Of a DNA stretch of 64,000 bases, positions 1 to 47,088 are shown piece by piece. Made by a program: the position numbers and the translations under genes. The notes below the pieces were generated by a model. It had not been told where the DNA came from. It worked only from the letters and a program-made list of their open reading frames with translations, and ran no database searches. The first letter of the stretch is position 1; each line of letters starts with the position of its first letter. This DNA comes from Chara braunii (taxonomy: Eukaryota; Plantae; Charophyceae): NCBI GenBank assembly GCA_003427395.1, contig BFEA01000005.1, positions 3,515,278 through 3,579,277 on the forward strand. The letters are read 5' to 3'.

Positions 1-738
1 AACGCGTGTTTGGGACTTGATTCCTCGCGTATACTGAGCCTAAGTGATGAGCTATGGAGGAAGAAAAAGACAGTTAAAGAGGGTTGCTTATTTGATTGCA
101 AAGTTTTTGCTAGATGGAGACTAGTATTAGCAGCCCTGGCTATAGCAGAAGGAGAAAGTTCGATGGTTGTTCCTTGATCAGCGTTGGTTATGCCCTTACT
201 GCCAAAATCTGACAGGTTTGAGTCCCTTTTTCGGAGGGAGGTGGTTCCCTGCATCAGTTTGATCGCTTTGACTGTGGAAAATAGATCGGTGTGTATGTGA
301 TCATATTCATGCAAAAGGAAAAACGAGATGAGAGGAAGAGAGAGAGAGATCCTTAGTTTCAGATCCCAGGCGGCATGCATAACCTGTACTTTTTTTTGGG
401 GGGGGGGATTGTTTGAAGAGACATGAGACTGTTCTCATAAACGTGCAAAGCGGGTGAGCCAACCTCTATGGCTTCTAAATTTTGGTCAGGACTACAAGAA
501 CTACTGTTGTTCATCTGAGTGCCTAGTTTAGAGAAACTAATGACTCAGTGAGAAAGTTCTAACTAAGGATTTATCTAAACGTGTCTGCAGTGCAGCAGAT
601 TGCACTAGCTAATCATGTTGGGTGTATAGCTCAAGGACAGGTTATCTCGCACGTCGATAGTCTAAACTAGATAGACCATTGGCCTTGCAGAACGTTTATG
701 GTTAAGGCAGTCAGGTATGTGGCAATGGACTGCCGTTA

Positions 739-1149
739 GTGACCTCGAAGTCTAGCTGGTCGCAGAATGTTTGTTTGATACTGAAAATCGACATCCTATC
801 CCTGGTGGAAAAACACTACATCAAAATTCGCCAGTACGTTTTCTCAAGCCGTTTACTTAGAGTAGCGGTTAAGGAATCTCTGCAAAATAGAGGAGACATG
901 GGGAGTGAAAAAACTCTATTGGTGTCCTACATATCTTGTCAAGATAGAGTGAAGAATTTGGGGGAAGAAACACTAGAAAGCTTTCAGTGCCACATAAGGT
1001 TAATGAGAGAACATGCACTGAAAGTAGTGAAAACACAGAAAACCATTGAATATGTCATATATTTTTATGGGCCTAACGGAGAGTTGGACAGTACCTACTC
1101 GCACCTAGAAACGACTGAACAGGCCAGGACAGAGATTGAAAGGGCGTGA
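739..1149 (+). CDS. Small LTR-internal ORF of unknown function (second copy at 20324..20608)
   Basis: Open in both LTR copies (…LVSYISCQDRVKNLGEE…YFYGPNGELDSTY…); no recognisable domain. Confidence 0.35.
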   Translation: MTSKSSWSQNVCLILKIDILSLVEKHYIKIRQYVFSSRLLRVAVKESLQNRGDMGSEKTLLVSYISCQDRVKNLGEETLESFQCHIRLMREHALKVVKTQKTIEYVIYFYGPNGELDSTYSHLETTEQARTEIERA

Positions 1150-1864
1150 CTGTGCTCAAACTCCTTTCCCCCTCTTCAACGGCATGCCCGGGCAGTAACC
1201 ACTCAGTCCCCACACCACGGTACTCTGTACCGTGATACCAAGTGATCAGTGCTTAGTATGGCGTGTCAAGTACACGTCACGGGGCTGTCCAGCTGAGTAA
1301 ACGAGCCCTAAGTACGCTGCCGAGCAATCTTGTGTTCAGTGATTCCCTCAAAACAAAAACAACACCCCCCCTGGAGAATGCATCAGTAAAGGTCTATCAC
1401 CTTTTTAGTCGTCTATCCATCGGTATCCGAGTTCTGTAAAAATCAGACAGTGCTCTTAGCGGGAGACACTGACGGTTGGCTCTAAAATCTACGCTTGTAC
1501 ATGATCATGACTCAACTAATTGAATTATACAGAGACATCAGTTAGAGCCAATCAGCATTCAGCCTGCACTTGGCCAGGTTTTCTTTCGATGTGCGATCAC
1601 TTGGGTCATTAGAAAGTCTCAGTTAAGGACGAGCAACTTCCAGACAACCTTTCATTTGTATTTGGTCATATTCATTCGACAATCAGTCAACTTTCAGCTA
1701 TTACTCAGCCATCAAAAACTCAGCAGTACTCGGGTTCAGTCAGCAAAATTTCAGCAAACATTTAGTTCTCATTTCAGCAATTAATCAGTTCGCTGATCAG
1801 AAGTCAAACAACAAACAATAGTATTCAAACGACAATCAAGCAGCGGTCAGACAAGCGTTGAAAT

Positions 1865-2125
1865 CAAGGCTGGGCCGGCAACCGGCCAGATCACCTGCCC
1901 CCGTCCAACCGGCGCCGGACCGGTCCAGGGGGGGTGAACCGGCAAAACCGGATGCCCCAAAAAAATGCCCCGAATTTTTTTCTTTTTTCTTTTGATTGAG
2001 GCATCCAACTGCGCTCGTTGAGATCTGTCGAAATCCGCATTAAAACTTGAAAGTCAGGAATTTCTTGGGGGGGGCTGGGGGTTTATGGTGCAGGGTGCAT
2101 TTCATGGGTGTACAGGCCTGTAAGA

Positions 2126-2193
<68 letters not shown>

Positions 2194-2412
2194 GATCCAA
2201 GAACCCAACCAAAGATGAAGAAGAAGTACAAGAAGAAGAAGAAGACGAGGAGGAGGAGGAGGACAGCGCTGCAGAAGGGGGTGTAGATAACTCTCTCTCT
2301 CTCTCTCTCCTCCGCTCCAAGAACCCAACGAAAGATGAAGAAGAGGAGGAGGAGGAGGAGGAGGAGGACACAACGCTGTTGAAGGGGGTGTGGAGAACTC
2401 TCTCTCTCTCTC

Positions 2413-2470
<58 letters not shown>

Positions 2471-3365
2471 AAACCCAGCGAAATATGACAACGAAGAAGA
2501 AGAATGATGGCAGGAGGAAAAGAAGAAACAAGAAGACCAAGAACAAGAAACAAGAAGAAGAACCAAGGAGAACAGGAAGAACAAGAAAAAAGAAAGAAGA
2601 AGAAGGAGCCAAAGAAGAAGACGAAGAAGAAGAAGACGAAGAAAAAAAGAAGATGAAGAAAAAAAGAAGATGAAGAAAAGAAGAAGACGAAGAAAAGAAG
2701 AAGAAGAACCAAAAAGAAAAAAGAAAACCTAAACTTAAGGGTATGGGTATGGCGGTGATGGGGGGTGCGCGGCATGGCTATGTCAGTGGCGAAGCTGAGG
2801 GCGGGCGCATGTTGGGGCAACGACGGGCTGGCGGGGCTAGAGCTTGAAGTCGACGTCCGCTCGAATGAGCGCGACGTCGACCTCGTCGGCACGTAGCCCA
2901 TGCAGGCGGGGTCGCGGCGGGTGTGAGCACATGGGCTCGTTTCGAATGGCTACAGGCTGCGTTTCGAATTCGTAACGCAGCCGATTTCGACCGCCGATCT
3001 GCAGATCAGCGACCAAAATCGGCCGCGTTTTCGAATTTGAAAATCGGGGCCTGTAGGACCCCGCATTTTGACAAAAGCGCGCGGTGGATCTCCACCGCTG
3101 ATCTCTGAAGATCAGCGGTGGAGATCCATCGCGCGCTTTTGTCGGAATGCGGGGTCCTACAGGCCCCAATTTTTTTTTTGGGCGGTGGCGGCGGCCTCCC
3201 CGAGGCTGGGAGGGCACGGGGACACCTAAAAATCCTCGGAACCCCCCTCCCAGCGCAATGCGCTGGTTCGAACCGGGGGCCTGCCGGTCCAGTGGACTAG
3301 CCGGTCCGACCAGGCGGCTCCCGGTCCAAGGAGGCCCCCCCGGTCCATCCGGTGGACCAGCACCG
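1865..3365. mobile_element. Non-autonomous hAT-type DNA transposon inserted in the 5' LTR of A
   Basis: Absent from the 3' LTR, where the empty site is GTTCAAAT at 21316..21323. 8-bp TSD GTTGAAAT (1857..1864) / GTTCAAAT (3366..3373). Imperfect TIRs CAAGGCTGGGCC / CGGTGCTGGTCC. Many subterminal CCGG/GGACCGG motifs. Confidence 0.88.
2126..2730. repeat. Three units of (TC)n followed by CCAAGAACCCAAC..AAAGATGAAG and a (GAA/GAG)n tract
   Basis: Seen directly; explains the spurious low-complexity ORFs in this interval. Confidence 0.9.
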
Positions 3366-3580
3366 GTTCAAATGACATCCAATCAGCTCTCAAACAACGT
3401 CTAACTAGCATCTAAGCAACATCTAACTAGCAGTCAAACAACACTCAAGCACCGGTCAAGGATCTGTTAATTGGTGACAATTGTTGCCTGATTCAGTGAG
3501 CAAACAATTGGCTTGATCCGTAAAGGACTTATCAATAAGAGATTCAGCCTCTTTCAGCTATCAAGCAGCTGGCCAAGCAC

Positions 3581-4234
3581 ATGATAGAGATCAACCCCAT
3601 CACGATTGACCAACTAGTCCTCGACAGCCTCAACCGGGTAGCCTCGAGAGAGTGCTTCCCCTACAAATATGTCTGAATCGATGGTTTCAAGCGTGAAGAT
3701 CTGTCAATCTTCATTGCTCTCACAGAATTTGCAGAAGGTACAGTCAAAGATCTGCGGATCTATCTAAAGAAAGGGAATAAGGTTCATCCACATTTTGATG
3801 CAGTGTGGGCTGCAGCGGCCGGGTATGTGCAGTGGAAAGTTGAGAGGCTTCAGGCGAACACAAAGTTAGTTTATAGCTTCGGGCCTAAGCTTTTCACTGA
3901 CTATCCCAAACCTCCGGTCCCCTACTATCTTAGTGATGACTCTTATTGGGGTGGACTGGTGGACCTAACCAAGAGATACGTATCGCCAGCAGAGATCGAT
4001 TACGAGGCAATGACTGAGCCTTCTAAGTTTCCACATCTCAGGAGGGGAGTTTTCTCTCAGCCCTATCTCCCTACACTATGGGAGGAATTTTGTGCCATGC
4101 TTGACTTCCGTATTATGGGACTTGGCTGGAAGTGTTTGGAACTAGTGGGCTTCAGGTGGCTTTACATTCATAAGTCACAACCTCATAGAGTACGGAAACA
4201 TGGCAAGAGGCCCAGACGACAGGCAACAAAGTGA
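3581..4234 (+). pseudogene. LTR-encoded 'FPY-motif' ORF with one in-frame TGA at 3674..3676 (second copy at 21531..22163)
   Basis: ATG 3581 is in frame with ORF 3803: MIEINPITIDQLVLDSLNRVASRECFPYKYV*IDGFKREDLSIFIALTEFAEGTVKDLRIYLKKG…; paralogous to ORFs 5050 and 5470. Confidence 0.7.
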
Positions 4235-4728
4235 CAGATGAAGAGTGAAGTCCTGAGGGTTGAGTGAAGACTCTTGATTGGTACTGGCCATGCTTTTTTC
4301 CATGTGTACTCCCTGAGACTATTACGAGTTCTCATTCTTCCCTCGTTCATTTGCTCTTGTCATTGCTCGAATCAGTCGGTCTTGCTTCTTGCGTTGTTCT
4401 TGCCTGATGATTGTTATCGTGAATGATTCTGTCACAGTTCTAAAAATCAGATTGACATAATTTATGCATGCATGGCACCCCATAATTTTATGATTATTAT
4501 TTGCGTAATTATCTGCTGTTCCGAATCAAAATAAAAGATTCCCAAGACCGGGGATCGGCGAAGAGCGTAATTGAAGGGTCTCGCTCGAAGCCGGACGCAC
4601 ACAACAGGAAGGGATTTGCATTTATTTAATTCATTTTATTTATTGCAACCTCATACAAAATCCTGCGTGACAGCCTGTTGGCTTTCCGGTCGCCCGAAGT
4701 GGCTCGGCTGGAAAAAGTGCGACAAAAA

Positions 4729-4746
4729 TGGCACCGTTGCCGGGGA
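4729..4746 (+). promoter_or_regulatory. Primer-binding site, tRNA-Asp type
   Basis: TGGCACCGTTGCCGGGGA, 4 nt after the LTR end; one mismatch to the Athila-type PBS TGGCGCCGTTGCCGGGGA. Confidence 0.9.
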
Positions 4747-5049
4747 CATGAAAAGATTTTCGTGTCTGGAACGAGCCTGGGTCATCATCATCTTTGAGCT
4801 TTGATTAGGGCGTGAGAACTGCTGACAATATTATGAGCTTTATATTAAATTTATTATTTTCATTGAGTCTCGATTCTCTTGAGAATCACAGCTGCTAACT
4901 GTGTCTTGTTTCTTCCTTGTGTGAGGTACCACACTGGACCGGAGAAGGAGATTAAGATTATTGACAGAAAATCAGACTTGAATTCAGGTATGCCTCATGA
5001 ACCTATGATGCCCTTTGAATATTGAGAAGAGAAAAGAAGCATCAAGAGC

Positions 5050-5319
5050 TTGGAGATTTCATCAAGAATGTTAACTTCAGATGCATTGAGAGAACTCGTG
5101 AAAGTGACTACCAAAGGAATATTCCCCTATCAGTACGAGCATTGTTGGGTCTACCATTCTGGCAATTCGACCATCAACATAGTGCTGACTTGCTTCTTAG
5201 AGGGAGATATTTATGATATCCGTCCCTATGTCAAGAAGGGAGACTGCGACGATGGTGAGATATTCAACTGGATAGGGAAATTGCAATCCAGTCTCTTCAT
5301 GATGAGAAGGCAGATCTAA
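5050..5319 (+). CDS. Pre-gag small ORF, FPY-motif paralog 2
   Basis: …ALRELVKVTTKGIFPYQY…IVLTCFLEGDIYDIRPYVKKG; shares motifs with ORFs 3581 and 5470. Confidence 0.65.
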   Translation: MEISSRMLTSDALRELVKVTTKGIFPYQYEHCWVYHSGNSTINIVLTCFLEGDIYDIRPYVKKGDCDDGEIFNWIGKLQSSLFMMRRQI

Positions 5320-6622: not shown

Positions 6623-6625
6623 ACA

Positions 6626-6892
6626 ATGCAATTTGATTATGAGATTATAGACCTGACTCGATATTTTATGATTCGGGGTACTGTAAAAGGGTATAATAGA
6701 AGATTGAGTAGGGATGATGAGAGAGAGCTGATTGAAGATTACATTAGAAGGCTGAGAAGAATTACATTGCCCTTGATCACTACTCAGTCTATTATTGCTT
6801 ATACTCTTTATGTACAAAATTATCAAGGGGTAGAACAGACAAGGGAAGAAAGAAACGAACCTGTATCCCTTGCGAAAAGAGTGAGAGATTGA
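6626..6892 (+). CDS. Pre-gag small ORF
   Basis: ATG lies 3 nt after the previous stop; ends …NEPVSLAKRVRD. Confidence 0.55.
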   Translation: MQFDYEIIDLTRYFMIRGTVKGYNRRLSRDDERELIEDYIRRLRRITLPLITTQSIIAYTLYVQNYQGVEQTREERNEPVSLAKRVRD

Positions 6893-6961
6893 AGGGCAAG
6901 AAAAAAAAGGACAAAAGTGACAGAAAGAGATAAGGAAGTATTCGAGAGAGTCTATGGTCAA

Positions 6962-8098
6962 AATGGCAGGACGAGGTAGACCGAGTTCTTCCGCATGAAC
7001 CAATGAAGAGGCCTTGGTTGGGGTTATACGGGAATTGGTTGAGAGAGTCGACACAATCAAAGGAGGGTCAGACATTGCAAGAGCAAAGAGGCCAGATGAG
7101 AGAATTTCATGTTTCAGAGGGCCTCAAGTAAATGATTTTCTGGACGAGTATGAATAATTTGGTCTTAGTTATGGTTGGACAGATAAACAACGGCTTAAAC
7201 ACCTCCTTTCTTATTGTGATACTGACTCAAGATTGCTGTTCAGGAACTGATGGAAGGTGCCACTACATGGAAAAAGGTCAAAGAGAGAATGAAAAAGGAA
7301 TTTGAGAAGGACCCAGTCCCAACTACAACCAAGGATTTACTCAACATCAGAAGAGCTAAGTATGACACTTTCAATGTTTCCCTTCAGACCTTCATCTGAA
7401 CAACAAAAAAAATCCCTTATTTGAACGAAAGTCAGAGATGCCATATATTTTTGACAAATTTTACTGACACTGAAAGGCAAACCGTTCTCAATCAAGCTCA
7501 GCACTATCCTCTCANATGGGATGAAATGGTTGCAATTGTAAGAACTCTGCCTACAGTCTCTCATAAGAAATGGTCACTAGATCAGATTAGTACTTTGGCT
7601 AACGACTGGGAGACTGAGAATGGTATGAACAGAGGAAACAATCTGAGTGCTGAGAATATTCTTCAGAAAGTGATGACTAACTTTATGCCTGCGAGGCCTG
7701 TTACCCATGCTGTGGATGACAGAGGGAAGAAGAAAGTTAAAAGTGATGAGGATGATGATTATGATGATGATGAAGACTATGGTAAGAAGGGGGATTCTTC
7801 CAGACCTAAAAAAAATGAAAAAAATGGTGACAAAAGAAACAGAGAAAGAAGAAAATATGATGAGCGTCCTAAGAGGAGTTTTGTCTGCTACTATTGTGGA
7901 GAAGGGGGTCCTCCTACCACCTATTGCAAGCCTCTTGAGGAGGATGTAAGGAGTGGGGTGGCAAAGAAGGATGCAATGGGCCATGTCTGTGATAGTTCAT
8001 GGAACAAGTTGGACCCTAGGCATCCAAGAGGTATGAGACTTCTTGCTCTTAAACATGATGAAAATATGAAGACGAAGAAAAGAGAAAGGTTAATATGA
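6962..8098 (+). pseudogene. gag: Gag of element A, with stops and frameshifts
   Basis: FRGPQVNDFLDEYE*…GWTDKQR capsid-like start; degenerate zinc knuckle CYYCGEGGPPTTYC. Confidence 0.85.
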
Positions 8099-11000
8099 AT
8101 GTTCATTTTATCATTGAAGAGTTGCCTAATGAACTAGTACAAAGAACAAGTGACCCTTATACCACGATTGAGTTGTCTCTGCAATCCTTAACATTGACAG
8201 AGTGTGAGCCTAGCGAGACATCTACAAGTGAGTCTCCATTGGGAGGGGATCCTGCTTCTCAGAATCCTTCTGAATTAGTAGAGTCCTCTTCCAATGAAAT
8301 GACTCGCTTCCTGGCTCACATGATGTCGTTCCATGGTGATTTACCCCCAGAACTCGTCATGAAACCTAGTGTCAAGCTTGACGAAGTGAGAAACCTTCAA
8401 ACTCGCATGACGCCTCAAATGATAGAGGAAAAGAAAAGGAGGAAGACTGAGGAGTCACTGATTAATATCCTTGATGATCCGGAACCGAAACTTTCACATA
8501 GAAAGAATGAACAGGGGAGAAAGAGAAAATTTATCCTCAAGAGTGACTTGGATGATGAGACAGTGATTTCTTATGTAATTACTAAAATGCTGGAAGAGAC
8601 GGAAGTGATATTGCCCTTCAAGGAGACAATGACTCTAGCACCCAAATTGAGAGAAGAGCTGAAAAAGTTGATTGAGAAGAAAAAATTGAAAGCTAATTAC
8701 TTGGGATCAGTCTTTCCCAACCAAGTGAACAGGTCACTGTCAGGTTGCAAGATGAGATTCGCAACCATGGGATATGGACACCTTACAAGTTGTATTAATC
8801 AAGTGAAGATTCTAGCCTTAGTGGACTCTGGAGCAGAGATGATACTCCTTTCTCGAAGAATGATGGAGGCATGTAATTTATCTATTGATAGAACTGCACA
8901 AAATGTACTGAGCAATATTGCAGGAGAGCTGTTTGTGGCAGGGTTCATTGATAACCTGCCTATCAGAGTTGGAACAATGACTGTGAAATTGCTGGGTTTT
9001 GTAGTGCCGGATCTGGACCATGACTGTATCTTGGGAACTCCATTCTTGCATAGGATGGAGGGGGTTCAATTATTCAACCATGAGGGGTAATCTTGGATCG
9101 GCCTACAAGATCCTGAGACTGCTCAAGAGCAAATCTTTATGGTCTGCACAAAAAGTGATTTCAAGCATCAATTGTCTGCTAATTCAATCAGAAGAGAAGA
9201 GTCAGCTGAAAGGGTTAGGAGACTAAAGGAAGAAGGAAAACAAGAAGCGAAAGAAGAGATTTCGGTGGGTATCAATCAAGTTTCAAAAATGATAAAAGCC
9301 CTTCGTAAACTCGAGGATGAGGATGAACAAATTGAAGCCTTTAAGAAGGCTGTCGAGACTGCTAAAGGTGGAAAGATAAAATTGAAATTTGCAGCGACTC
9401 ACCATTTTTTAGAAAAATAGTCACTGGGTCAAAAATAAAATATAAGCCCAAGGGGGTGAAGAAAAACTCGGTGGCAGTCCTAATAGAAAAAAATTATAAT
9501 GCAGCAATGAAAAGGGTGAGAGAGATTATTAAAGCATTGAGAGAGTCTGCAAAATTGGGGAATAGGGTCACCAGAGAGAGATTTGACACGATGAAGATAG
9601 GCTCGGATCAGTTTATCCTGCCTAGAGAGAAATAATATATCTTCAAGATGTGTCAGGACTTATCCGGTGCATTTTCCTTTAATGATGAAGAGAGAGGGCG
9701 GTTGGATGTGGATATGATCAAGATGACCAAAATTTGGACAGTTGATCATGTTTCATGGAATGATAGACCGACCAAGTATGCCGTGAAAGAAGAAGCAAAA
9801 GTTGTAAAATACCTTGACAAGAAGATTGCATCTAATGTTATTGAACCTGCTGATGGACCGTATGCTAACCACTGGTTTTGCTTTTGGAAATCAGGGGGTG
9901 GATTGAGATGGATTCAGAATCTTCAGAAACTCAACTCTGTGACGGTATGTGATGCGGGTAGTCTTCCTAATGTTGATCTCCTCTCTGAATCTTTTGCTGG
10001 TCGATGCATTTATTCTCTAGTTGATTTGTATTCTGGCTATGATCAGTTTTCCATTGATCCCACTAGCCGACCAATGACTGCCCTGCACACGCCAAGGGGA
10101 CTCATTCAAATGTGTGTGGTGCCTCAGGGTTGGACTAATGGTGTGGCGGTGGTTCAAAGGGATATGATCCAAGTCATGCAAGATATTTCTCCTGAGATAA
10201 CCAGTCCCTACATTGATGACAATCCTGTAAAAGGACCCCTGGTAAGGGATGAGACTTTGGTTGCAGGTGGAGTCAGAAAGTTTGTCTGGAACATGCTGAA
10301 GGAGTAAAGATGGTCCTAGAGAGACTTCTGACTGTCAGTGGACCAAAGTCCCTTCTCTTCCTATCTGAGGTGATCATCTTAGGCTTCAGGTGTTTCTCCA
10401 AGGGTAGGAGTCCTGACCCCAAGAAGATAGACAAGATCTTAAATTGGCCTCTTCCTCTCAAAAGAGTGACAGACGTCAGGAGCTTCTTGGGAGTCTGTGG
10501 ATTCTGGAGGATTTTTATTCCTCATTTTGCTACCCTTGCAGAGCCTCTGAGGGAAATGGTAAGGCAAGGGGTTAATCTAGCCTGAAATGATAAAAGACAA
10601 GCTGCCGCAGAAACACTACAGGAAAAACTAAAAGATGGTGGTGTGGTGCTGGGAGTACCACTTTAGGCCGATGGAGGACCGGTTGCTCTGGGTGGAGTGC
10701 TCATTCAGAAAGATGAAAATGGGAAAGAGAGGCCTCTGAGATATAAGAGTAGAACTCTCAATTCAACAGAGAGAGGTTACACCCAATTCAGGAAGGAGCT
10801 ACTGTCGATCATCCATAGCTTCAGGTGCTTCAAGCACTACATACTAGGAAGGAGATTCATCTTGAGGACTGATGCATCTGCTGTGATTGGTGCCATCAAG
10901 AAGCACCAACAAGTAGATCCAACAGTCAGCAGGTGGATCGCCTTCATCTGGACATATGATTTTAAGTTGGAAAAGATTTTCACTGAGAAGAACAGAGCAG

Positions 11001-12655
11001 ATGGTCTAAGCCGGATTGAGTGGCGAAAAGAAGAAGAAGAGGATGTAAATGGAACGCTTGAAGAATCATCCTATGTTGATAATTTTCTTAATGAGAAAGA
11101 TGATGAGGATTATGAAGCACCACACTCCTACAAGTGGAGTTTGTGGCATGAAGAGATAGACAACTGGGGAGAAATCCCTAATGCATATGTTTATGAGTCG
11201 ATTCTTAGGAAAGAAGAAGAAGATGAACCAAATGATTGGTATGCTAGAGTTAATGCAGCAGAAGTGACTGCTCATGAAATGGGGGAAAACTCTGGTTCAA
11301 AGGAAGAAGAAGAAGGAGGCGAAAAAAAGGAAGAAGATATATTTTTCATATTTGAGGAATATGATGAAAACTATCAAGAGATTGGTAAGAGGATGAAAAA
11401 GGAGCAACTAAAAGAATAGTATTGTAAGAATTCAAGGAAAAAGTTCAGACTAAAAAGAAGACATTTCTTTGTGGATGGTAAGGGAGGCCTACTTCCACTA
11501 AGGGTGGTCTGTGGTAAAGAGAGACAATTAGAGATAATTGCTGCTCTACATGAGGGGGGTGCTGGTGGCCACAGGGCTGCCGAGGCAACCTACTCTAAGA
11601 CTGTCAAACTCTACTTCTGGCCTGGCATGAGAGACATGATTTTCTGATTTTGTAAATCATGTGTGTTATGTCAGAAGAGGTCTCCCACAAGAATGATTGA
11701 ACCTTTATTTCCCACTATTCTGGTAGAGCCAGGAAGCAGAGTTCATTTAGATCTCATCACAATGCTTTTAGGCAAGGGCGGAATGAGATATATACTGAAC
11801 TTGAGAGATAACTTCTTTGGACATGTTGAGGCAAAAACTATAAAAAGAAAGACAGCCGAGCAAGTGGCTGACTGGATAGAAGAAGTTCATCTTAGGTATC
11901 CTTTTATCAGATAATTTGTCTCTGACAGGGGATCAGAATTTTGAAATGAGATCGTTAGGAGAACCACACTCAGGTTGGGTGTCAGAATTCTGTATGTGAC
12001 TACTTACCATTTTCAAGCTAATGCACTTGTTGAAAGAGGTCACAAAACTTTGAAAGATTCATTGGCCAAGTGGTGTGAAGGAAATCTCAGCAACTGACCA
12101 AAAGTGTTAAGAGCTGCTGTATATGCTGACAACATCACAGTTAAAAGAACTACTGGCTATGCACCATTTACTCTGTGGTATGACCGATATGCTACATTGC
12201 CTATTGAGAATATTGTCAAGACATGGTCAAATCAAGAAAGTGACAGGGACTATTCTATTTCAGAGCTCCTTCAGATCCGAATGAGGCAAATATCAGACGT
12301 TGGCCAGACAGTAATGGATGCTGCAGAAAGGATGACATCTAACAGATTGTCAGATCAAGAGAGATGAAACAAGAAAAGATACATAAGAAAGGAAAAACTG
12401 AAAGTTTGAGATGTTGTCCTTCTGTTTGACAGTTCCCTTGAGACACAATGGACTAAAAGGTTGGAGCCCAGATGACTTGGTTCTTATAAAATTATGGGAG
12501 GAGCAGAGGGCAAAGTTTATGAGATCTTAGAGATGGATGGATCCAGGGTTCATGACATGGTATCAAATTCAAGACTTCGTAAATTCATATTCAGAGATCC
12601 AGATCTGATTCCTACGGTAACCTCAAGGAGAGGGAAGAAAAGTCAGTCATCTAAG
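8095..12655 (+). pseudogene. pol: Pol of element A: protease, RT, RNase H, integrase; no chromodomain; fragmented
   Basis: Protease ALVDSGAE…ILGTPFL; RT DLYSGYDQ, PQGWTNG, YIDD; RNase H KELLSI…RTD…ADGLSR; integrase H..GH…C..C, HLD, SDRGSEF, ANALVERGH and a GPY/F-like LGSYKI; stop at 12653..12655. Confidence 0.95.
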
Positions 12656-14579
12656 TGAGAGAGCAGGTCCAGAGAACTGAGAGAAAAAGTATTGTAAGAC
12701 AATGAGACAGTAAAACTGAATTTTTAGCAGACAGTGATCGTTCGTGCATGGTCAATTCAACATTTCAATTCTTCAACATGTCAATTAATTTTCCGTTTTA
12801 GCAGGTAACAAAGTTAATAAGACTATACCTTTGATGTAATGCTACAGTCGATCCATGAGTCTCAGGTCCCTGAAAGTGGGGAATAACTGTGAGGCACAGT
12901 TTTTCGTGAGCATTGACGCAGTGTCAAGATCAGAGAACTCATGGATGTGGCATATCAAGAGATGTATTCAGTATTCTTTTTATGATAAAGAGGAAGCACG
13001 ATGAGCATAGAGAAGTTCAGTTCTGTCTGACTAAGAGTTGTCAGCAGAAGAACTTTGTGTTTTTGACTAAGTTATCAGCTCTCTCTAAGAAGAGGGAAGG
13101 GACCCCTCTGAGATCAACATTTCAATATTTCCTTGGGACTGACGGGATGTCTCTTGGAAAAGAAAATTCCCAGCTGAGGGAAGGGGTCTCTCTGGGACCA
13201 GCAATGAGTATACTTCTTGAGACTGACGGGACATCTCTTGAGAAATGTTTGTCCTGTTATGGGGCGAGGGCAGTTTGCTTGTGAGTTATGATACGCTTGT
13301 CTAATTATCTGTGCCTGGGGTATCTTCTTCTTTAAACCTAAGGATGGATTGATTGTCGGGGTCAGCCAGAGCCTTACCGCGGTAGGTTGCAATCTGGTGG
13401 GGTCAGCAGGTCCCCGATGCGAGTGTCGAATTCCGTAATCAACTGAGGCTCAGACTCCGGGGGTCTGGCCTATGAGGTTGAAAGGGGTCAGCTGGAACCC
13501 TACTGTAGTTAGAGGATGCAATCCAGTAAGGTTCGCCAGAGCCTTGAATCGTAGTTAGACCGAGTCCTACGTTCGAAAATCTGGGCGGGGCAGCCAGCGC
13601 CCTTGGCCAAAAACTGGTAGGTGAGCTGGTCCCTGACCGCAGTGGTCAAATCCGGGTTCGGGACAGTTTGACTGACGGGACGTCTACTGTCATAGGGTGA
13701 CCAGACCCGCTATAGTTTGGGTGTCCTGGCGAGAGTGCTAAAGGGCTTCCATACTCGAGTAGTGGGTATGCTGGTCCTTACTTGGAGGCAGGTCAAAGGG
13801 GCTGTTAAGACAAATGGTCTAACTAGTCCTAGCCTGAGGTGGGTCGGATGAGGTATGTCAGACTGACGGGACGTCTGTCATTCCTAACCAGTGGTGGGCC
13901 GAAACCAAGGCAATCAATAAGCTCCTGGGTGTAAGGAATTGTTTTATTGCGTCTATTATTTAATTATTTTATTAAATTTATTATTGTTTTATTTTATTCG
14001 GGGTTCTGGTTTGTTTACTTGCTGCTTGTCTGATAACAGTTGGGGAACCTGCTTGCTAGGGCATAGTTATTGTCTGTAGGACTCGCTGTTTTGCAGGTAT
14101 ACAAATACTTATCTGAAGTTCCCAGACCAGAGAAAAGAAAAAAGGTTTGGTATCCCCTCCCTTTTATCTGAGAAGCCGAGGAGACGCCTCATTTAGGCCA
14201 GAGAAAGAAAACAAGGGTTTGATATCCCCATCAGGTGTTTGGGAAGTTGAGAAGACGTCTCACTCAGGCCAGAGAGATAGAAAAAAGGTTTGGTATGTTC
14301 CGTCCCCAACATGGCAGACAGAGTGAGTGCCCTCGTTACGGGGACAACACCCCTGGCAAAGATGCCTGATCAAGAGCTAAGGTAACCTTCATACAAAAGA
14401 TCGGCAGCAGAGCAAGTTAATCAGGTAGACAAAAATCCTTGTTAAAATTTATTTGGTGGCCGACAAGCGGCCTTGTTCACGAGGAACCTGCATCCCCGGC
14501 CTTAAGGAAGCCAAACTCTCAGGCCTGGGATGCTATGAAGTGGACTGTGAACTGAAAATTTTACAAGTCGAAATCAGAC

Positions 14580-15047
14580 TCAGAAAGTTGAGGAGAAATC
14601 ATGCTTATATAAGACATAAAAGATGGTCGTGAGCTCAATCTGGAAAAGAAAGAGAAAAAAGAAGATACTGAAGAGAATACAATGACTAGGGTGATGAGGT
14701 GATGAAACAACACATGGGACAGAGGAAGGTGGAACTGGCACTATGGCCTTGCTCACAGCAGGGGTGGAGGGAGCTCTGGGGATATAAGGAGGAGAAGAAG
14801 CACTGGGTGTGCCGTAGCGTGTATCAATTTTTTTTCGGAGGTACTCCATCCTGTCTGGGGATGAAGTCTTCTCGTACCATCCTGTTAGTGGATAACGCGG
14901 ATAAGGCCTCTGATGTGCATAGCCTCTTGGCTCTTCTTCCTCCTCCTCTGAACTATAATCGCGCCTTGCCCTAGCCGGTGGCTCCTCCTTAGCCTTCCCT
15001 GTCCTACCTCCCCTTCCTCTACCCTGTCCGCGACGCGCCTCAGGCAT
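14580..15047 (-). CDS. Antisense ORF in the 3' internal region of element A
   Basis: ATG start followed by Arg/Gly-rich, acidic and Pro-rich segments; position and orientation typical of accessory antisense ORFs of non-chromovirus gypsy elements. Confidence 0.55.
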   Translation of the reverse strand: MPEARRGQGRGRGGRTGKAKEEPPARARRDYSSEEEEEEPRGYAHQRPYPRYPLTGWYEKTSSPDRMEYLRKKIDTRYGTPSASSPPYIPRAPSTPAVSKAIVPVPPSSVPCVVSSPHHPSHCILFSIFFFLFLFQIELTTIFYVLYKHDFSSTF

Positions 15048-15324
15048 GATGTAAGACGAGTGGCCGCAAAGAGGGAGTTACGACCTAAGAGTACTATGAG
15101 AGCAGGATCTAGACTAAGGACGAAGGAAACACTAAAGAAGGAAGAAGGAAACTACCCTGGACCTAAGGGATTACAACGCGACAAGAGGGAAAAAGGAAAC
15201 TAGCGCCGGGAGAGAGAGAACTAACGCTGAGAAGAAGGCTAAGGCAGGAGGAAGCTAGCGTCGAAAAAGAAGATTGACGCAGAGAGAGAAGGCTAACGCA
15301 AAGCTAAGAAGAAGGATGAGCGCT

Positions 15325-15339
15325 AAGAGGGGGGGCGAG
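15325..15339 (+). promoter_or_regulatory. Polypurine tract
   Basis: AAGAGGGGGGGCGAG immediately before TGTTG. Confidence 0.8.
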
Positions 15340-18300
15340 TGTTGAAGAGAAAACAGAAAACTGACTGCGCTAAGGCACAGTATGGATGCTACCGCAAGTC
15401 ACAAGTAGGAATGAATGAGAATGTTGCTTGCTTACGCTGGTTTTATACTGGAAGCGTAATCCATTTCGACCCAGCGGGGACGCTGGGTGGGGGTTTGGTA
15501 TTATGTCAAAGGGCGCAGTGTCCCGACCCTCCTCTGCGTACCAGGTCCCTGCCTGATATCGGCTCCTTGTCCCGGTGTCGTGGCCTATGGGGGGGGGCCT
15601 ATGGTCCAGAATTAAGTTCCCTGGTACCCAGGCTGTACCATGACGTGGACCGACCCTGTTTGGTGCTTACCTCAGCAAAAAGGTGCGCCACAGGGCTTTC
15701 CATTGGTCCACGCAGGCTCGGCGCTCTGCTGTACAGCAGAGCACAACCGGCCTATGACCGTGGTAGCCGCCGGGTTCGCCCTGGGACGCGGAGGAGAGAA
15801 GACTGGCTCAGTCTTTTCAACTGCGCGCCAAGTGCCCTGGTACCGAGTTATGGGTTAGGTGCAAGAAGACAGGTCATTGTAAAACAAAAGAAAAGCTAAA
15901 GCTAGGCGGCCGAGCCACACTCAGATCGTGGCCTTGTTTAAATGTGGGGTAATCCAATGATATCGGGTCACTGTACCTTCGAGTTTTTTTTTTTTTTTAC
16001 TTTTATTATTTTAACCATTATTATTAATTTTTCGATTTATAGTGATTACTATGTAGCTTGTACTAATTCTCGAGGCCAATGGATGAATTCTGGACCGCGG
16101 CTGCTGTCTGATAAGCTTGGTCGCTCAGACTTGAAGTGACTGTCAAGCCCTGATGGTTGTGATCCGGGCCAGGTGCAGAAGTGTGATAGTGGTGATTCGT
16201 GAGGCCGCCTCAACAGCGCGCCAGACTCATGTAGCCACGATGTAGAGCGAGTGCAGTGTTGAAGGTCATTGTCTGAAGGCAAAAGGGAAGGAAAAGGAAA
16301 ATGTTGAGCGTTAGGCTTTGAATTTGCACTCAAGTTTAAATCGCTGTCCTGGCTCGTCGGTATCCGGGAAAACTTCAAGCGCCATCCGTTTCTTTCTGTT
16401 TTTTTTCATCATTATTAATGGTATTATTATTATTATTATTATTACCATACCGGTTTTCGGACGCGCTTTCCTTTTCATCTTATGTCATATCGCGGGGAGG
16501 CCAACGGTTCGAATTTCGAGTTGTGGTCCAAGTTGGCTGGCCCCACTTATTTCGTCTGAGAATGAGCACCGATTGAGTGCTGCACGGTGAGGCCCCAAAA
16601 GAGGGGGCGACCCGCGGCCGCATCGGCAGGAGGCTCATCACCCCCTATAGGGGGTCAGGAACCCCCTCCTTACCATCGGGCACGGGCACCCAGTGGGAGT
16701 AGTCAGATGGCACGTTTTGAAGAGGAATGGAGATCCGTCGGTATCCCGTTATGGGACCGTCGTGTCAGATCTGTGGGTCACTTTTAGGCCAGAGAAGCGT
16801 TTCAGTGGTCGGTAGCAGAAGCCGACGCTGTGACCGTTGAGTCCTGAGTCAAGGGCACCTTTTAAATTGTTTAGTTTCAATCTATTTTATTATTCTGGAC
16901 CCTTTAAAATTTTTAAATCCAAAAAGGGGGTAAAAAGGACTAATTCGAGTCCGTTAGTTAGAACGTTGGGATTGCGATAGAGAGAGATCCTATAAGAAGA
17001 GGGAGTTGCCATTTACTGCGAGACACAGATGGTCTCGTTGTGCTATCGCAAGGAGGGAAGGACAAAGAGACGAAGTGTGCATGTAATCTGTCTGTGTGCC
17101 TCTGCTTGTGCACCTTGTAGTGGGTACTGGTCATTCGGGTCAATAGGCGGAGCTGGCGCGGTGTCTGTTGTGCTGAGCCTAGCTATGGCGTTGCACGGGT
17201 ATAGGCCCGGATACTCGTACCATCAGGCCCGGTGGAAACCCATATCGGGGGAAGGGCCCTGAAACACATTAATGCTCAATTACGACGGTGGTGATGAAGT
17301 GAGACTAAAAATCAATGTGGAGGGTGCTAAGGAGGTAGAGATGCGGACTGACGCAAAGCTGCAGGACGCGATCACGGAGGCAAAGNATCGTGCGGAGAGG
17401 CGCTGCAGGAGGGACNGAGTGACGACAAAAATGCAGGTAACTGTCTCGTATCATNAGACNGAGACCTCGATGGACANANCAGACCTGGAACAAGCCCATC
17501 TGGACCGGGACTNAGGTGGGGAGAGCGAGATGAGTGAGGCAGGGGATCGAGAGACGGACCTTCAGTCCTGGAACAGACCAGGCCAGGTCCGCAAGAAACA
17601 CCCGCTGGCAGGCCCTGTGGAATGCGGGCCCGAAGCCAGCTCGCGGCAAAATCCCAGAGGGCGAGGGAAAGGAAAAGGGGTGTGAGTCATCGATGCGCGG
17701 GGCGGACTACACGTGGCAGCCCGGGGGAGCGAGAAGAGGTCAACATGAGTGAGAGATAGGGCGGCGGTTAACAGAAGATAGCGGGAGTGCATGAGCATGG
17801 GGCGTGAGCCTACTGCGTTCGTCAGAGAAGTGTGAAACAGGTGGGCTCGTAGAGAGCGGGACATCACGAGTCTGCACGTGGTACATTCTGGCAGGAGGGG
17901 GCAGAAACACCGACGTGGCATGGTCCAGAGGGATAGAGAGAGAAAGAGAGTCAACTCGAGAGACTGGGTAGCAGAGAGAGCAGGTAAAACGGTGAGGGGC
18001 CAGGTGTTGGATGACGAGCGACACGAGAGAGGATAACTCATGCGGGCACGACTTCTTGGCGGACGACAACTGTTCAGGGTGAACTCACACCGTGTGCCTG
18101 TAAAGAGGCACAGCGGACAGGGTTGCTTGGTGAGCTTGGACTACAAGCGTTGCCCTCGATGGCGTTATCCCTGACGTCATCCCTAACGGAGGGGCAAGAG
18201 TCACGATTGTGAGAGGGGTGTTGTGACGAGCTTGCATGTTGAAGGAGGTTGACGTCAACTCATCCATACAATCCAAATCACTGATTTCGACATACCTCCC

Positions 18301-21300
18301 ATACCTGCTTTCTCGTCTCTAGGGTATGCGTAACTTAGAAGAGGTGCGTGTATAATGCAGTGTGCTATGGAGGGTAGTTGGACTCTACGCGTATGTATGC
18401 ACGTGTGTACGTGATTCAGCTGAAGCGAGGCGAGTGAAAAGTCTTTTTGTTGACGTCTTCACACCAGTTCGTGCCAGATTGGGACGCACAATGCTGAGTA
18501 GGTGAAGCAGTGTGGGAGAAGCAAAATGAGCTCCCTGAGTACCGGGTGTTCGCTTGACTAGCAAAAATCTCAGTCATGCCCTCCCTTCTCTTTTTTTGCT
18601 TCGTACTATTGGTCACTGTCACGAAGTGACTAAGGGACAATCGAACCAAAGGGAGAGACGGTGGTTGGCAAGATATATGTGAGCATACAGTGGACTCTTG
18701 AGTGGTGAAACTCGCACTAGAAACTTGTAGAAACCACTTGGAAGCTCTCCCTAAGTTTCACGTGTTCTTTTGTTGAGGGTTGTTTGTGTGGGAACTAGAG
18801 CGAGGGAGCCCACATTGATAGCATAAGCGATCACATCCGATTCTGTGGTGGGCCGTATAGTTTCGGGCGCATTATTGGTCACCAAGGCGGGCAGAAAGTT
18901 GTCTGAAGCTCGAGTTGCTAGCAGATGAGAAACTAATCTTTTTTTTTCACAAGACGTGTTGTGTACTGAGACGACCTAGACGTGTTGATGGCTGGTAAGT
19001 CAATTGAGAGGTTGAACGAGCTTTGGGCACTTTTCGTTGAGGTAAGATAGTTTGACTTCAAGCAAAAACATGACTAAGTTGATTCTCTTAAGAATGCATA
19101 TGATATGACCTTAGTGTGACCTAAGGCCGTGTGAGAGAAGATAACGCGTGTCGAAAGAGATGACACCACTAGAGCATGAAGAGTGTGATGCCTTTTCGTA
19201 TGTATTACTATTTCCCAAAGTTTTGTTGTTTTTCACTGAGGTCGCGGTTCTACTGGGCTTAACGGCGGAACAGGAAGAGTGTCCTTGCTAACTTTAGCTT
19301 GTCTCTCTGGCTGGTATGACGCCAGCAATAGGACGTGTACGGCCATATGCTTGTGTGGTCCAATGAGCCCAGATACTCGTGCGAACTCAGGATTTATGCG
19401 ACTGCGCGAGCATAAGATCATACTAGCCTATGAACGATAACGTTGGATGATGTTAAAAGCGTGTTTGGGACCTGATTCTTCGCGTATATTGAGCCTAAGC
19501 GATGAGCTATGGAGGAAGAAAAAGTCAGTTAAAGAGGGTTGCTTATTTGACTGAAAAGTTTTTGCTGGATGGAGACTAGTATTAGCAGCCCTGGATATAG
19601 CAGAAGGAGAAAGTTCGATGGTTGTTCCTTGATCAGCGTTGGTTATGCCCCAACTGCCAAAATCTGACAGGTTTAAGTCCCTTTTTCGGAGGGAGGTGGT
19701 TCCCTGCATCAGTTTGATCGCTTTGACTGTGGAAAATGAATTGGTGTGTATGTGATCCTATTCATGCAAAACGAAAAGTGAGATGAGAGGAAGAGAGAGA
19801 GAGATCAATCCTTAGTTTCAGATCCCAGGCGGCATGCACAACCTGTATTTTTTTTGGGGGGGGGGGATTGTTTGAGGGGACATGAGACTGTTCTCATAAA
19901 CGTGCGAAGCGCGTGAGCCAACCTCTACGACTTCTAAATTTTGGTCAGGACTACAAGAACTACTGTTGTTCGTCTGAGTGCCTAGTTTAGAGAAACTAAT
20001 GACTCAGTGAAAAGGTTCTAACTAAGGATTTATCGAAACGTGTCTGCAGTCCAGCAGATTTCACTGGCTAATCATGCTGGGTGTATAGCTCAAGGACAGG
20101 TTATCTCGCACGTCGATAGTCTAAACTAGATAGACCCTTGCCCTTGCAGAATGTTTATGGTTAAGGCAGTCAGGTATGTGGCAATGGAGAGTCGTTAGTT
20201 ACCTCGAACTCTAGCTGGTAGCAGAATGCTTGTTTGATACTGAAGATAAACATCCTATCCCTGGTGGAAAAACACTGCAGCAAAATTCGCTAGTACGTTT
20301 TCTCAAGCCTTCTACTTGGAGTAGTGGTTAAGGAATCTCTGCAAAATAGAGGAGACATGGGGAGTGAAGACACTCTATTGGTGTCCTACATATCTTGTCA
20401 AGATAGAGTGAAGAATTTAGGGGAAGAAATACTAAAAAGCTTTCAGTGCCACATAAGGTTAATGAGAGAACATGCACTTACAGTAGTGAGAATACAGAAA
20501 AACATTGAATACGTCATATATTTTTATGGGCCTAACGGAGAGTTGGACAGTACCTACTCGCACCTAGAAACGACTGAACAGGCCAGGACAGAGATTGAAA
20601 GAGCGTGAGTGTGCTCAAACTCCTTTCCCCCTCTTCAACGGCATGCCCGGGTGGTAACCACTCAGTCCCCACACCACGGTACTCAGTACCGTGATACCAA
20701 GTGATCAGCGCTTAGTATGGCGTGTCAAGTAAACGTCACAGGGCTGTCCAGCTGAGTAAACGAGCCCTCTGTACGCCGCCGAGCAATCTTGTGTTCAGTG
20801 ATTCCCTCAAAACAACAAAAACACACCCCCTGGAGAATGCATCAGTAAAGGTCTATCACCTTTTTAGTCGTCTCTCCATCGGTATCCGAGTTCTGTAAAA
20901 ATAAGACAATGCTCTTAGCGGAAGACACTGAAGGTTCGCTCTAAAATCTACGCTTGTACATGATCATGACTCAGCTATTTGAATTATAGAGAGACATCAG
21001 TTAGAGCCAATCAACATTCAGCCTGCACTCGGCCAGGTTTTCTTTCGATGTGCGATCACTTGGGTCATTAGAAAGTCTCAGTTAAGGACGAGCAACTTTC
21101 TGACAACCTTTCATTTGTATCTGATCAGCTTCATTCGACAATCAGTCAACTTTCAACTATTACTCTATCAGCAAAAACTCAGCAGTACTCGGTTTCAGTC
21201 AGCAAAATTTCAGCAAACATTTAGTTCTCATTTCAGCAATTAATCAGTTCGCTGATCAGAAGTCAAACAACAAACAATAGTATTCAAACGGCAGTCAAGC

Positions 21301-22671
21301 AGTGGTCAAACAAGCGTTCAAATAACATCAAATCTGCTCTCAAACAGCGTCTAACTAGCATCCAAGCAGCATCTAACTAGCAATCAAACAATACTCAAGC
21401 ACCAATCAAGGATCTATTATTTGGTAACAATTGTTGCCTGATTCAGTGAGCAAACAGTTGGCTTGATCCGTAAAGGACTTATCAATAAGAGATTCAGCCT
21501 CTTTCAGCTATCAAGCAGCTTGCCAAGCACATGATAGAGATTAACCCCATCACGATTGACCAACTGGTCCTCGACAACCTCAACCGGGTAGCCTCGAGAG
21601 AGTGCTTCCCCTACAAATATGTCTGAATCGATGGTTTTAAGCGTGAAGATCTGTCAATCTTCATTGCTCTCACAAAGTTTGCAGAAGGTACGGTCAAAGA
21701 TCTGCGGATCTATTTAAAGAAAGCGAATGAGGTTCATCCACATTTTGATGCAGTGTGGGCTGCAGCGGCCGGGTATGTGCAGTGGAAAGCTGAGAGGCTC
21801 AAGGCGAACACAAAGCTAGTCTATAGCCTCGAGCCTAAACTTTTCACTGACTATCCCAAACCTTCGGTCCCCTACTATCTTACTGATGGCTCTTATTGGG
21901 GTGGACTGGTGGACCTAGCCAAGAGATACGTATCATTAGCAGAGATCGATTACAACGCAATGACTGAGCCTTCTGAGTTTCCACATCTCAGGAGGGGCGT
22001 TTTCTCTCAGCCCTATCTCCCTACACTATGGGAGGAATTTTGTGCCATGCTTGGCTTCCGTTTTATGGGACTTTGCTGGAAGTTTGGAACTAGTGGGTTT
22101 CAAGTGACTTTACATTCAGAAGCCACAACCTCAGAGAGTACGGAGACATGGCAAGAGGCCTAGACGACAGGCAACAAAGTGACAGATGAAGAGTGAAGTT
22201 CTGAGGGTTGAGTGAGGACTCTTGATTGGTACTGGCCATGCTCTTTTCCATGTGTACTCGCTGAGACTATTACGAGTTATCATTCTTCCCTCGTTCATTT
22301 GCTCTTGTCATTGCTTGAATCAGTCGGTCTTGCTTCTTGCGTGGTTCTTGCCTGATGATTGCTATTGTGAATAATTCTGTCACAGTTCTCAAAATCAGAT
22401 TGACATAATTGATGCATGCATGGCACCCCATAATTTTATGATTATTATTTGTGTGATTCTTTGTTGTTCCGAATCAAAATAAAAGATTCCCAAGACCGGG
22501 GACAGGCGAAGACCGTAATTGAAGGGTCTCGCTCGAAGCCGGACGCACACAACAAGAAGGGATTTGCATTATTTAATTCATTTTATTTATTGCAACCTCA
22601 TACAAAATCCTGCGTGACAGCCTGTTGGCTTTCCGGTCGCCCGAAGTGGCTCGACTGGAAAAAGTGCGACA
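15340..22671 (+). repeat. 3' LTR of element A (~7.3 kb)
   Basis: Begins TGTTG after the PPT and ends CGACA (imperfect inverted termini). The 3' 3.2 kb match the 5' LTR. The start is inferred from the PPT. Candidate TATA box CCTATAAGAAG at ~16989. Confidence 0.8.
17185..17685 (+). pseudogene. LTR-encoded protein (…LKINVEGAKEVEMR…) with an in-frame TGA at 17260..17262
   Basis: ATG ~200 nt after the candidate TATA box; a clear homolog with mostly synonymous changes lies at 40370..40585 (minus). Confidence 0.75.
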
Positions 22672-25455: not shown

Positions 25456-25457
25456 GG

Positions 25458-26383: not shown

Positions 26384-27447
26384 GTTATAATATTAAATGA
26401 GTCGCACTTCGTTATATTGATATTCATCGACTTTATCTATAAATTTTGACTTATTGTGTTGGAAATTATTATATTTTATATGTAATGTTTTAATCGGACA
26501 CTTTATCCAGAAATTTGAGGTTTCCTTTCAGTTATAATTTTAGTAGATTGATTTTTTCATGCAAATTATTATCAGTTAAAGCTATTTGAAACACTGTCAA
26601 GCAGGCATTAACTTTCTTTTTATATTTTTTTACAATATTTATTCAGTCATGAATTTGATTATTATTACTATATTTTGATTGATCAGTTTATCGGGACTTC
26701 TATAAATTTCGATATTATCTACTTTTGTGATGCATTTCTGTCATAAAAGTGCATTTGATCTATTGTTGGAAATTATTTAGCGGGGGTCATTTTGTGTAAA
26801 AGTGTTTTGTATTGATATTGTAAGATATGTTATTTTGTTGAAGATGTTATCATGTGACAATAAATTTCTGATGGATTTGTGAGCTAAGTAGGTGGTAGGT
26901 AGGCTCGCGCCGAGGCTGCTCCTGGTCCATAGTGGGATGTTGTTTTCCGAATCCTATGTGGTTTAAGGAAGAAGGACTACACTATCATTGAAAAGGGAGG
27001 AAGATGTTGAGGCTTTGTTAAAACGTTGCATGTAGTTGTAGGCGACTATTGTTTGTCGTGAGGGAATGAGTGATCACCTAACCTCGTTTCGAACAGAGTC
27101 ACCTTATCTCTATGGCCGATGTCTGATCAGCCTCGGTTGTATGAGGTAGGGTTGTCATACTCTATGTGCAAAGGATTGATAGGGTCGCAGCGCGGGAATC
27201 AGAGGGAATGTGTTGAGGCTCGAATCTAAAGTGGGGTTTGATGTCGAGATGTTATCTCGTGAAGAGGATTACACCACTCCTCGACGCATATCACAAGGGT
27301 TGAGGAAAATCAGATATGATGACTATGAAAGTGAGATCATAACTTGGACGGAGGATCTTGGACGAATGGTTTATCTCATAAATGGTTAGTTTGGGCAATG
27401 TCCGAACTATTCCAGGAGGTTGGTGTGAAAAGAAGGAAAAACCTGTT

Positions 27448-40365: not shown

Positions 40366-40369
40366 ACGT

Positions 40370-40585
40370 ATGCACCTTCTCTTGGCCCCGTTTTTCGCCT
40401 CTGAGATGGCCGCTTACAGCTTTGGGTCTTTCCTCATCTCCTCCTCTTTAGCTCCTTCTGCGTTAATTTTCAACTTTGCCTCGTCGTCATCAAAATTTGG
40501 GATAGTAGTAAGTCAAGGGCTTTCCCCCGATACTCGTGACCAACGAGTTAGGAGCCTCCAGCAGTCCGGCATATACCCGTGCAGC
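40370..40585 (-). pseudogene. Diverged homolog of the element-A LTR ORF at 17185
   Basis: LHGYMPDCWRLLTRWSRVSGESP*LTTIPNFDDDEAKLKINAEGAKEEEMRKDPKL*AAISEAKNGAKRRC. Confidence 0.8.
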
Positions 40586-40859
40586 CCAGTACGAGAGGCT
40601 AAAGTTGTTGTCACCACTAAGGTCCCCTCCCCAAACACAACACGATCAGAGTCTAGCCACCCACACTCACATAGCAAGTTTGTCAAGAATGAGAGAAGGT
40701 TAACAACCGGAGTTACTGACGTCGCCCTGCGGGCCATCCGCCAGCAGTGCTGCTCACGCCACAGTTCTACATGGCGAAGAAAATGTGAGGTCCAACCTCC
40801 TCCATCTTCAGTTGGTTACAATGTTCCCCTGCTCAAAGCCGTTCTCAAATGTTCAAACT

Positions 40860-42663: not shown

Positions 42664-42700
42664 CTGTCTCTTATACACATCTAGATGTGTATAAGAGACA
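42664..42700. other. Nextera mate-pair junction adapter (assembly artefact)
   Basis: CTGTCTCTTATACACATCT followed by AGATGTGTATAAGAGACA (back-to-back Tn5 mosaic ends), ~95 nt from an N gap at 42533..42569. Confidence 0.97.
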
Positions 42701-47055: not shown

Positions 47056-47088
47056 AATCTCCCAAAGATCGGCAATCCCAAAGCCGCT

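Follow-up and report, generated by a model that had tools for sequence, protein, structure and literature searches.

The window analysed here is a stretch of 64,000 nucleotides from the genome of Chara braunii (contig BFEA01000005.1, positions 3,515,278 to 3,579,277), the left part of which is occupied by a large retrotransposon (Table 1). Paired LTRs with TG..CA ends (the TGTC start being obtained through the outside locus L002, see below) and a primer-binding site identify it as an LTR retrotransposon, and the succession of its Pfam matches in the order PR-RT-RH-INT places it in Ty3/Gypsy. The gag-pol reading frames contain numerous stops and frameshifts, and the two LTRs are 94% identical (K2P 0.06). 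In this degraded copy, Pfam recovered no chromodomain in the RH-INT frame up to its stop and no RNase H in the long ORFs located 3' of the RT-to-INT frame; a single RH stretch was present in the latter, the second, archaeal-type RNase H of the Tat clade (Ogre, Retand, TatI-III) not being found. We classify the host element as a non-chromovirus Ty3/Gypsy retrotransposon family with an LTR of 7.2 kb. Its primer-binding site is reminiscent of what we take to be the Athila type.

Table 1. Features of the retrotransposon and of the ORF-A copies, in window coordinates
Feature	Position	Strand	Remarks
5' LTR, visible part	1..4724	+	starts left of the window; terminates ...CGACA; 94% identity with 19456-22671
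Primer-binding site	4729..4746	+	18-mer beginning TGG, immediately 3' of the LTR
ORF-B paralog, broken, internal	4987..5319	+	upstream of gag; 32% over 65 aa, E 1.6e-6
gag-pol, degraded	7100..12658	+	Pfam: aspartyl protease, RVT_1, RT_RNaseH, Integrase_H2C2, rve; order PR-RT-RH-INT
3' LTR	15504..22671	+	7168 bp, TGTC...GACA; start from L002 homology, end from 5' LTR
Conserved non-coding motif 1, near LTR start	15625..15892	+	77% to L002; highest contig depth
Conserved non-coding motif 2	16576..16758	+	74% to L002; high contig depth
TATA-like box, candidate ORF-A promoter	16991..16996	+	same motif, same place in L002
ORF-A, accessory protein gene	17185..17685	+	ATG 17185 to TGA 17685; one internal stop, codon 26
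ORF-C	20357..20608	+	open frame of 83 codons in each LTR; in the 5' LTR within 706-1149
ORF-B	21531..22163	+	210 codons; the two LTRs share its stop; in the 5' LTR at 3581-4234
AATAAA, candidate poly(A) signal	22478..22483	+	sole AATAAA within the LTR
Diverged ORF-A homolog, 5' half	40366..40593	-	two stops; cut at 40365 by the LTR end of element 2

Some other segments of the element can be mentioned. A 1.5-kb insertion with inverted ends (1865-3365) is found in the 5' LTR and is missing from the 3' LTR, and a long broken frame without Pfam match lies upstream of gag (~6030-7030). Between pol and the LTR, a non-coding block (13364-13912; 13136-13876) exhibits very high contig depth and contains a 17-nt motif with TGACG four times, possibly a protein-binding array.

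A previous sequence-only reading of this DNA had located ORF-A inside the LTR. This is not readable from the window's own repeat, which proves the LTR only over 19456-22671; it holds for the copy at 17185 by way of L002, one of two loci (L001 and L002) obtained from 597 pattern matches in a metagenome collection. L002 represents a subfamily with ~55% protein identity to the window copy and is colinear with the window over 15625-15892, 16576-16758, ORF-A, 18248-18672 and ORF-C at 20357-20604, this last block falling within the proven repeat. The homology sets in precisely with the TGTC of window 15504, preceded by an unrelated flank; this TGTC mirrors the GACA at the LTR end, and a TGTCGG start was also observed in two other repeats of the window. 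Because L002 is colinear from TGTC into the proven repeat, we delimited the 3' LTR as 15504-22671, 7168 bp. ORF-A is placed 1.7 kb into the LTR and is thus not located as the internal-region aORF-3S are. The LTR start is supported by a single outside locus. The purine tract ahead of 15504 is imperfect, and a second read mapping revealed no clean LTR boundary in contig depth. Another candidate start, a purine tract plus TG at 16302, was rejected: it is not conserved, another letter being present in 93% of the X1 contig depth. The colinearity with L002 across 15504-19456 also ruled out that this segment originated from a nested element, one of the two origins that the sequence-only reading had named as fatal to its proposal; the other, a gag fragment, found no echo either in the gag of the window or in the Pfam gag families, neither of which exhibited similarity to ORF-A.

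It could still be argued that the gene is real and lies in a spacer between pol and a 3' LTR starting further right, for example at 18219. A purine tract followed by TG is present at 18211-18220, the window's own repeat proves the LTR only to the right of this point, and extra ORFs usually reside between pol and the 3' LTR (PMC7264820). We nevertheless consider this location highly improbable, given that the homology with L002 runs from TGTC through 18248-18672 into ORF-C, that two further window repeats begin with TGTCGG and that ORF-A precedes a gag of its own type in five gene models. According to our hand reading of 31 long gene models, gag/pol of this element's type occurs in six, with ORF-A before it in five and after it in two (P0004 has both); in the remaining 25, ORF-A is joined to unrelated sequence or stands without gag/pol of this element, such joins being noisy. 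We therefore hold it very probable that ORF-A is a real gene and that it lies inside the LTR.

Both translations reported by the sequence-only reading were reproduced, the homolog extending from 40593 to 40366 on the minus strand. DNA similarity starts at the ORF start, and none was detected upstream. The reading had noted that many conserved residues use different codons, and we indeed found an identical residue in 41 of the 70 scorable codons, 22 of these 41 being encoded by different codons. Mismatches were distributed as 16/21/42 over the three codon positions (binomial p 2e-4). With a pS of 0.86 and a pN of 0.24, the pN/pS ratio was 0.28 (bootstrap 0.19-0.39), the remaining five frames yielding values from 0.44 to 1.63. 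Because the pair had been found by protein similarity, we ran a column-shuffle control, in which none of 5000 shuffles attained 0.28 in the best of the six frames (lowest value 0.40). Outside the window, the ratio for ORF-A was 0.30 against L001, 0.43 against L002 and 0.36 between L001 and L002, and the second window copy gave 0.41 against L002; the intervals of all outside-locus comparisons remained below 0.6. The proposed selection on a protein was thus borne out, all pN/pS comparisons of ORF-A falling between 0.28 and 0.43 and none near 1, the dN/dS among families that the reading had set against its own claim.

The alignment of ORF-A with L002 scored 77 (shuffled maximum 18); the leader between the TATA-like box and the ATG scored 10 (shuffled mean 8.6) and was not alignable. 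Contig depth at 80% likeness, which is no copy number, rose about tenfold from ~150 just upstream to ~1400 within ORF-A. Counts over the family were made on a protein set of 54 rows (quick tree), six rows having been removed beforehand, namely the two window copies, one chimera, two pieces with frameshifts and one duplicate of a model. Substitutions shared by at least 4 of the 54 rows were more conservative than singletons (mean BLOSUM +0.11 versus -0.77, p 6e-6), a pattern that indicates that active lineages are under selection and that copies decay once inserted. We conclude that ORF-A is a protein-coding gene under purifying selection.

Both copies of ORF-A in the window are pseudogenes. 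The one at 17185-17685 holds seven single Ns, and the stop at codon 26 is common to the two copies, the second having one more. Programmed read-through of the shared stop was considered and rejected: another letter was present in 96% of the X1 depth within the codon, and in related gene models an amino acid occupies this position of the alignment.

A word search with ORF-A recovered 55 proteins (21 of 175 and 34 of 46 candidates), all of them gene models of Chara braunii. HMMER against 1.84 billion representatives produced 34 matches, 31 of them on the core; the three tail-only matches (P0076-78) were left out of the family. Twenty matches were new, corresponding to 18 C. braunii models (among them the three tail-only ones), a 59-aa piece and a 154-aa protein of Chara vulgaris, the latter from a transcript assembly (E 3e-8; 32% identity over 100 residues to the window copy). 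All named relatives are thus from Chara, with dozens of gene models in C. braunii and a single transcript in C. vulgaris, and none was found in viral or prokaryote contigs. The ORF-A family, whose intact members have ~174 aa, comprises many subfamilies and is found so far only in Chara. Our literature searches recovered no published description of it; the 2018 paper on the Chara genome, with its supplementary material, may bear on this point. Two diverged ORF-A paralogs stand in tandem within a single gene model, P0010. In six other C. braunii models (P0005, P0015, P0020, P0064, P0068 and P0070), ORF-A is fused to host genes, the partners being glycosyltransferase, GTPase, dynein, Clp and prohibitin; these fusions are probably annotation chimeras.

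The LTR carries two further ORFs that, judging from pN/pS, are under selection. ORF-C exhibits 37-39% amino acid identity to L002:5456-5704 with a pN/pS of 0.42, pS being saturated. ORF-B exhibits 52-57% amino acid identity to part of the gene model P0008, and its pN/pS against the broken paralog at 4987-5319 is 0.58; no stand-alone homolog of similar length was found. Neither ORF-B nor ORF-C matched a Pfam family, and ORF-A shows no relation to either of them.

Upstream of ORF-A, the TATA-like box precedes the ORF by 194 nt in the window and by ~160 nt in L002. The first ATG following it is that of ORF-A in L002 and the ORF-A start is the third one in the window; the TATA match itself is marginal (score 13, shuffled maximum 14). 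For the motif 15625-15892, the predicted RNA fold reached z -4.7 in sense and -3.35 in antisense orientation, with 4 of 59 predicted pairs compensatory; for the motif 16576-16758, 5 of 43 predicted pairs were compensatory, two sequences only being compared in both cases. Rfam gave nothing near the gathering score over 12600-22700.

The sequence-only reading had suggested that RNA-seq be inspected for a transcript starting downstream of the TATA-like box. We used 6-13% of each of three C. braunii RNA runs (X5, X6 and X7). Reads on ORF-A were present in one of them, X6 (depth 7-13, both mate directions), none being 99% alike over the stretch; X5 and X7 contained no reads on ORF-A. The RNA-to-DNA depth was 3-5 times higher on ORF-A than on the two conserved motifs, a descriptive figure to which DNA carry-over possibly contributes. 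No RNA dataset carrying the window copy of ORF-A was listed. These data, weak as RNA support in C. braunii, show no expression of the window copy, and its relatives may be expressed; for the family, the C. vulgaris homolog occurs in a transcript assembly.

The AlphaFold model (50 rows) reached a pLDDT of ~90 at residues 11-100, the remainder being of low confidence, and exhibits the order three strands, short helix, long helix, fourth strand. The protein is predicted to start with a compact alpha/beta domain, which includes an Arg-rich helix; a Ser-rich, acidic stretch comes next, and the tail is basic. A conserved basic patch is located at the end of the long helix, where R72, R73 and R76 are invariant in 8 diverse rows. 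The motif D-S-x-x-E-S was present in 45 of 54 rows, and conservation is similar in the acidic disordered segment and in the folded domain (0.84 versus 0.80). The final 46 residues of ORF-A contain 11 K/R, its net charge being close to zero. An env-like hydrophobic or transmembrane segment was absent from all five members scanned (top 19-residue hydropathy at most 0.28).

That no domain is recognisable, as the sequence-only reading had stated, agrees with all our searches. The ORF-A family had no match to a Pfam domain, sequence searches of the PDB gave no significant match, the ESM Atlas no usable one, and Foldseek against PDB and viral structures nothing with E < 0.001. The VIA fold search also yielded no significant match, the best Z scores (6.2-6.8) being below the informative level of the tool; its matches to a GNAT fold (Z 6.2, rmsd 3.5, 66 aligned) and to a gelsolin domain of adseverin (Z 6.8, rmsd 3.0, 67 aligned), both with Z <8, may reflect a common arrangement only. 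No nucleic-acid-binding family stood above background in the fold searches, and the matches listed included no structure of Rad52, VANC or Rev type; VANC/MAIN had no match in Pfam either. A reading as KH type II/OsmC, derived from a first, weaker model, was abandoned when the KH-class matches were mostly lost with the better one. The TRP28 domain, typical of the antisense ORF of Retand/Grande, had no match among 38 members, and ORF-A lies on the sense strand.

Our preferred reading, held tentatively and with chances just short of even, is that ORF-A is a selected LTR gene whose product acts in trans as a nucleic-acid-binding regulator promoting the expression of the element. In its favour are the basic helix with R72, R73 and R76, the basic tail and the lack of a hydrophobic segment, with Grande GENE23 and the U3 genes of MMTV as precedents; against it stand the near-zero net charge, the marginal TATA match, the weak RNA support and fold searches that raised no nucleic-acid-binding family above background. 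ORF-A would be transcribed from the adjacent TATA-like box, giving a small soluble protein that would enter the nucleus and bind the element's own nucleic acid in trans; by transactivation or anti-silencing at the conserved motifs of the LTR, it would raise the expression of the element. Every LTR, solo LTRs included, would then be its own promoter-plus-gene cassette. An anti-silencing or trans-activation role, as the sequence-only reading had put forward, would fit the architecture of the protein, and the assignment to a functional class seems to us about evenly balanced between right and wrong. A more far-reaching version, possible but rather unlikely, is that the 7-kb LTR is a self-contained three-gene module in which ORF-A would represent a new class of sequence-specific nucleic-acid-binding proteins that recognise the conserved motifs at the 5' end of the LTR itself.

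The same basic helix, together with the RG-rich tail and the Ser/acidic cluster, could instead belong to a Rev/CERV-like protein, which would bind a structured motif in the genomic RNA and act in export, stability or packaging of the long unspliced transcript. The stretch 15625-15892, the most conserved one in the contig mapping, folds far better than its shuffles, and an LTR retrotransposon, Cer1, encodes in CERV an export factor regulated by phosphorylation (PMC10309623). The antisense strand folds well too, however, few of the pairs are compensatory in the two sequences at hand, the KH-class matches of the first model are mostly gone, and a GxxG pattern is present in only 8 of 54 rows, so that we regard such a protein as unlikely. 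A role in assisting reverse transcription through terminal repeats of such unusual length, by strand annealing or as a chaperone, was suggested by the beta-meander and basic helix of the model and by one member matching Pfam Rad52_Rad22 (E 0.12, residues 40-96); this match is below the curated cut-off and was obtained for one of seven proteins in one Pfam set and for none of 38 in another, and we find this role very improbable.

ORF-A might also target a host protein rather than nucleic acid, as a silencing suppressor, ubiquitin adaptor or actin-binding factor. The conservation of its disordered acidic segment is reminiscent of short linear motifs, its top structural matches are gelsolin domains, and many host contacts are predicted for accessory TE proteins (PMC13547354). 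The low Z of these matches leaves room for a mere common arrangement, however, and the Gly of a DSGxxS degron, a pattern matched by 37 of 54 rows, is missing from diverged subfamilies, making a host target improbable in our opinion.

Among vertebrate retroviruses, HIV nef and foamy-virus tas/bet overlap or adjoin U3. In MMTV, U3 encodes Sag and Naf (PMC9412291), so that a protein gene resides in a terminal repeat with an LTR-internal promoter, as is the case here for a candidate promoter. In contrast to these viruses, the LTR described here contains three genes, and ORF-A exhibits neither sequence or fold similarity to their proteins nor a membrane segment. Extra ORFs are common in plant non-chromovirus Ty3/Gypsy elements, where they are placed in the internal region (PMC7264820, PMC6317226, PMC11963269); GENE23 of Grande has a nuclear product and its own promoter (PMC7264820). 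Athila ORF2/env-like, Ogre, Retand TRP28 and Grande gene23 resemble ORF-A as lineage-specific accessory ORFs of giant non-chromoviruses that are conserved across copies. They are located either upstream of gag or in the segment that separates pol from the 3' LTR, frequently in antisense, whereas ORF-A is in sense and within the LTR, has no Pfam match to their domains and is accompanied by two more ORFs in its LTR. With 7.2 kb, this LTR exceeds the 5 to 6.5 kb cited as extreme (PMC6317226, PMC6431247).

VANC of VANDAL is comparable as a TE-encoded, lineage-restricted and fast-diversifying accessory protein and could serve as a working model, although it belongs to eudicot DNA transposons, has a MAIN-related fold and shows no detected similarity to ORF-A (PMC13547354). 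CERV of Cer1, like retroviral Rev, is comparable as a small accessory protein whose segments are in part basic and in part phosphorylatable, and the element described here contains a motif predicted to be structured; CERV is made from a spliced internal mRNA (PMC10309623), and no homology to ORF-A was found. In Retrosat2, a plant element with LTRs >3 kb, the orphan ORF0 evolves faster than pol yet below neutrality; unlike ORF-A, it sits in the internal region upstream of gag-pol (PMC3485330). ORF-A represents a Chara-restricted, undescribed family and is one of the three genes of a 7.2-kb LTR.

The presence of three selected ORFs explains how an LTR can reach such a length, and by implication a solo LTR can encode proteins. 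If the three-gene module is real, it would constitute a regulatory circuit resembling that of complex retroviruses, which charophyte algae evolved independently and Chara species have retained, and in which each LTR, including solo LTRs produced by recombination, would supply regulators in trans. Dozens of 'hypothetical proteins' of C. braunii, some fused to host genes, are pieces of this element. The new small protein family has a fold modelled with confidence, and members that are naturally intact can be assayed.

Other repeats are present in the rest of the window. A second LTR family (22832-25456 and 38227-40365, 86% between the pair) has a primer-binding site at 25459 with nearly the same motif as that at 4729, and its right LTR truncates the second ORF-A homolog. 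Related repeats starting with TGTCGG at 35645 and 52600 (minus), with blocks of 68-80%, are probably long LTRs and lack ORF-A. An element on the minus strand at 43484-49105 has 628-bp direct repeats (97%) and a zinc-knuckle ORF; its broken frame, which had no Pfam hit, we take by eye to be GIY-YIG plus RT. It resembles the Chlamys Penelope-like elements, reported in Chara braunii (PMC8557442). An N gap flanked by GA/TC at 53790-54660 is an assembly artefact. We presume the same of 42533-42700, where an N gap adjoins what we take to be the junction of a mate-pair adapter. Tandem arrays were observed at 27404-27741 (~31 bp), 57281-57921 (~210), 62970-64000 (~60/120) and 40857-41403 (~180 bp), the last one just upstream of the second ORF-A homolog.
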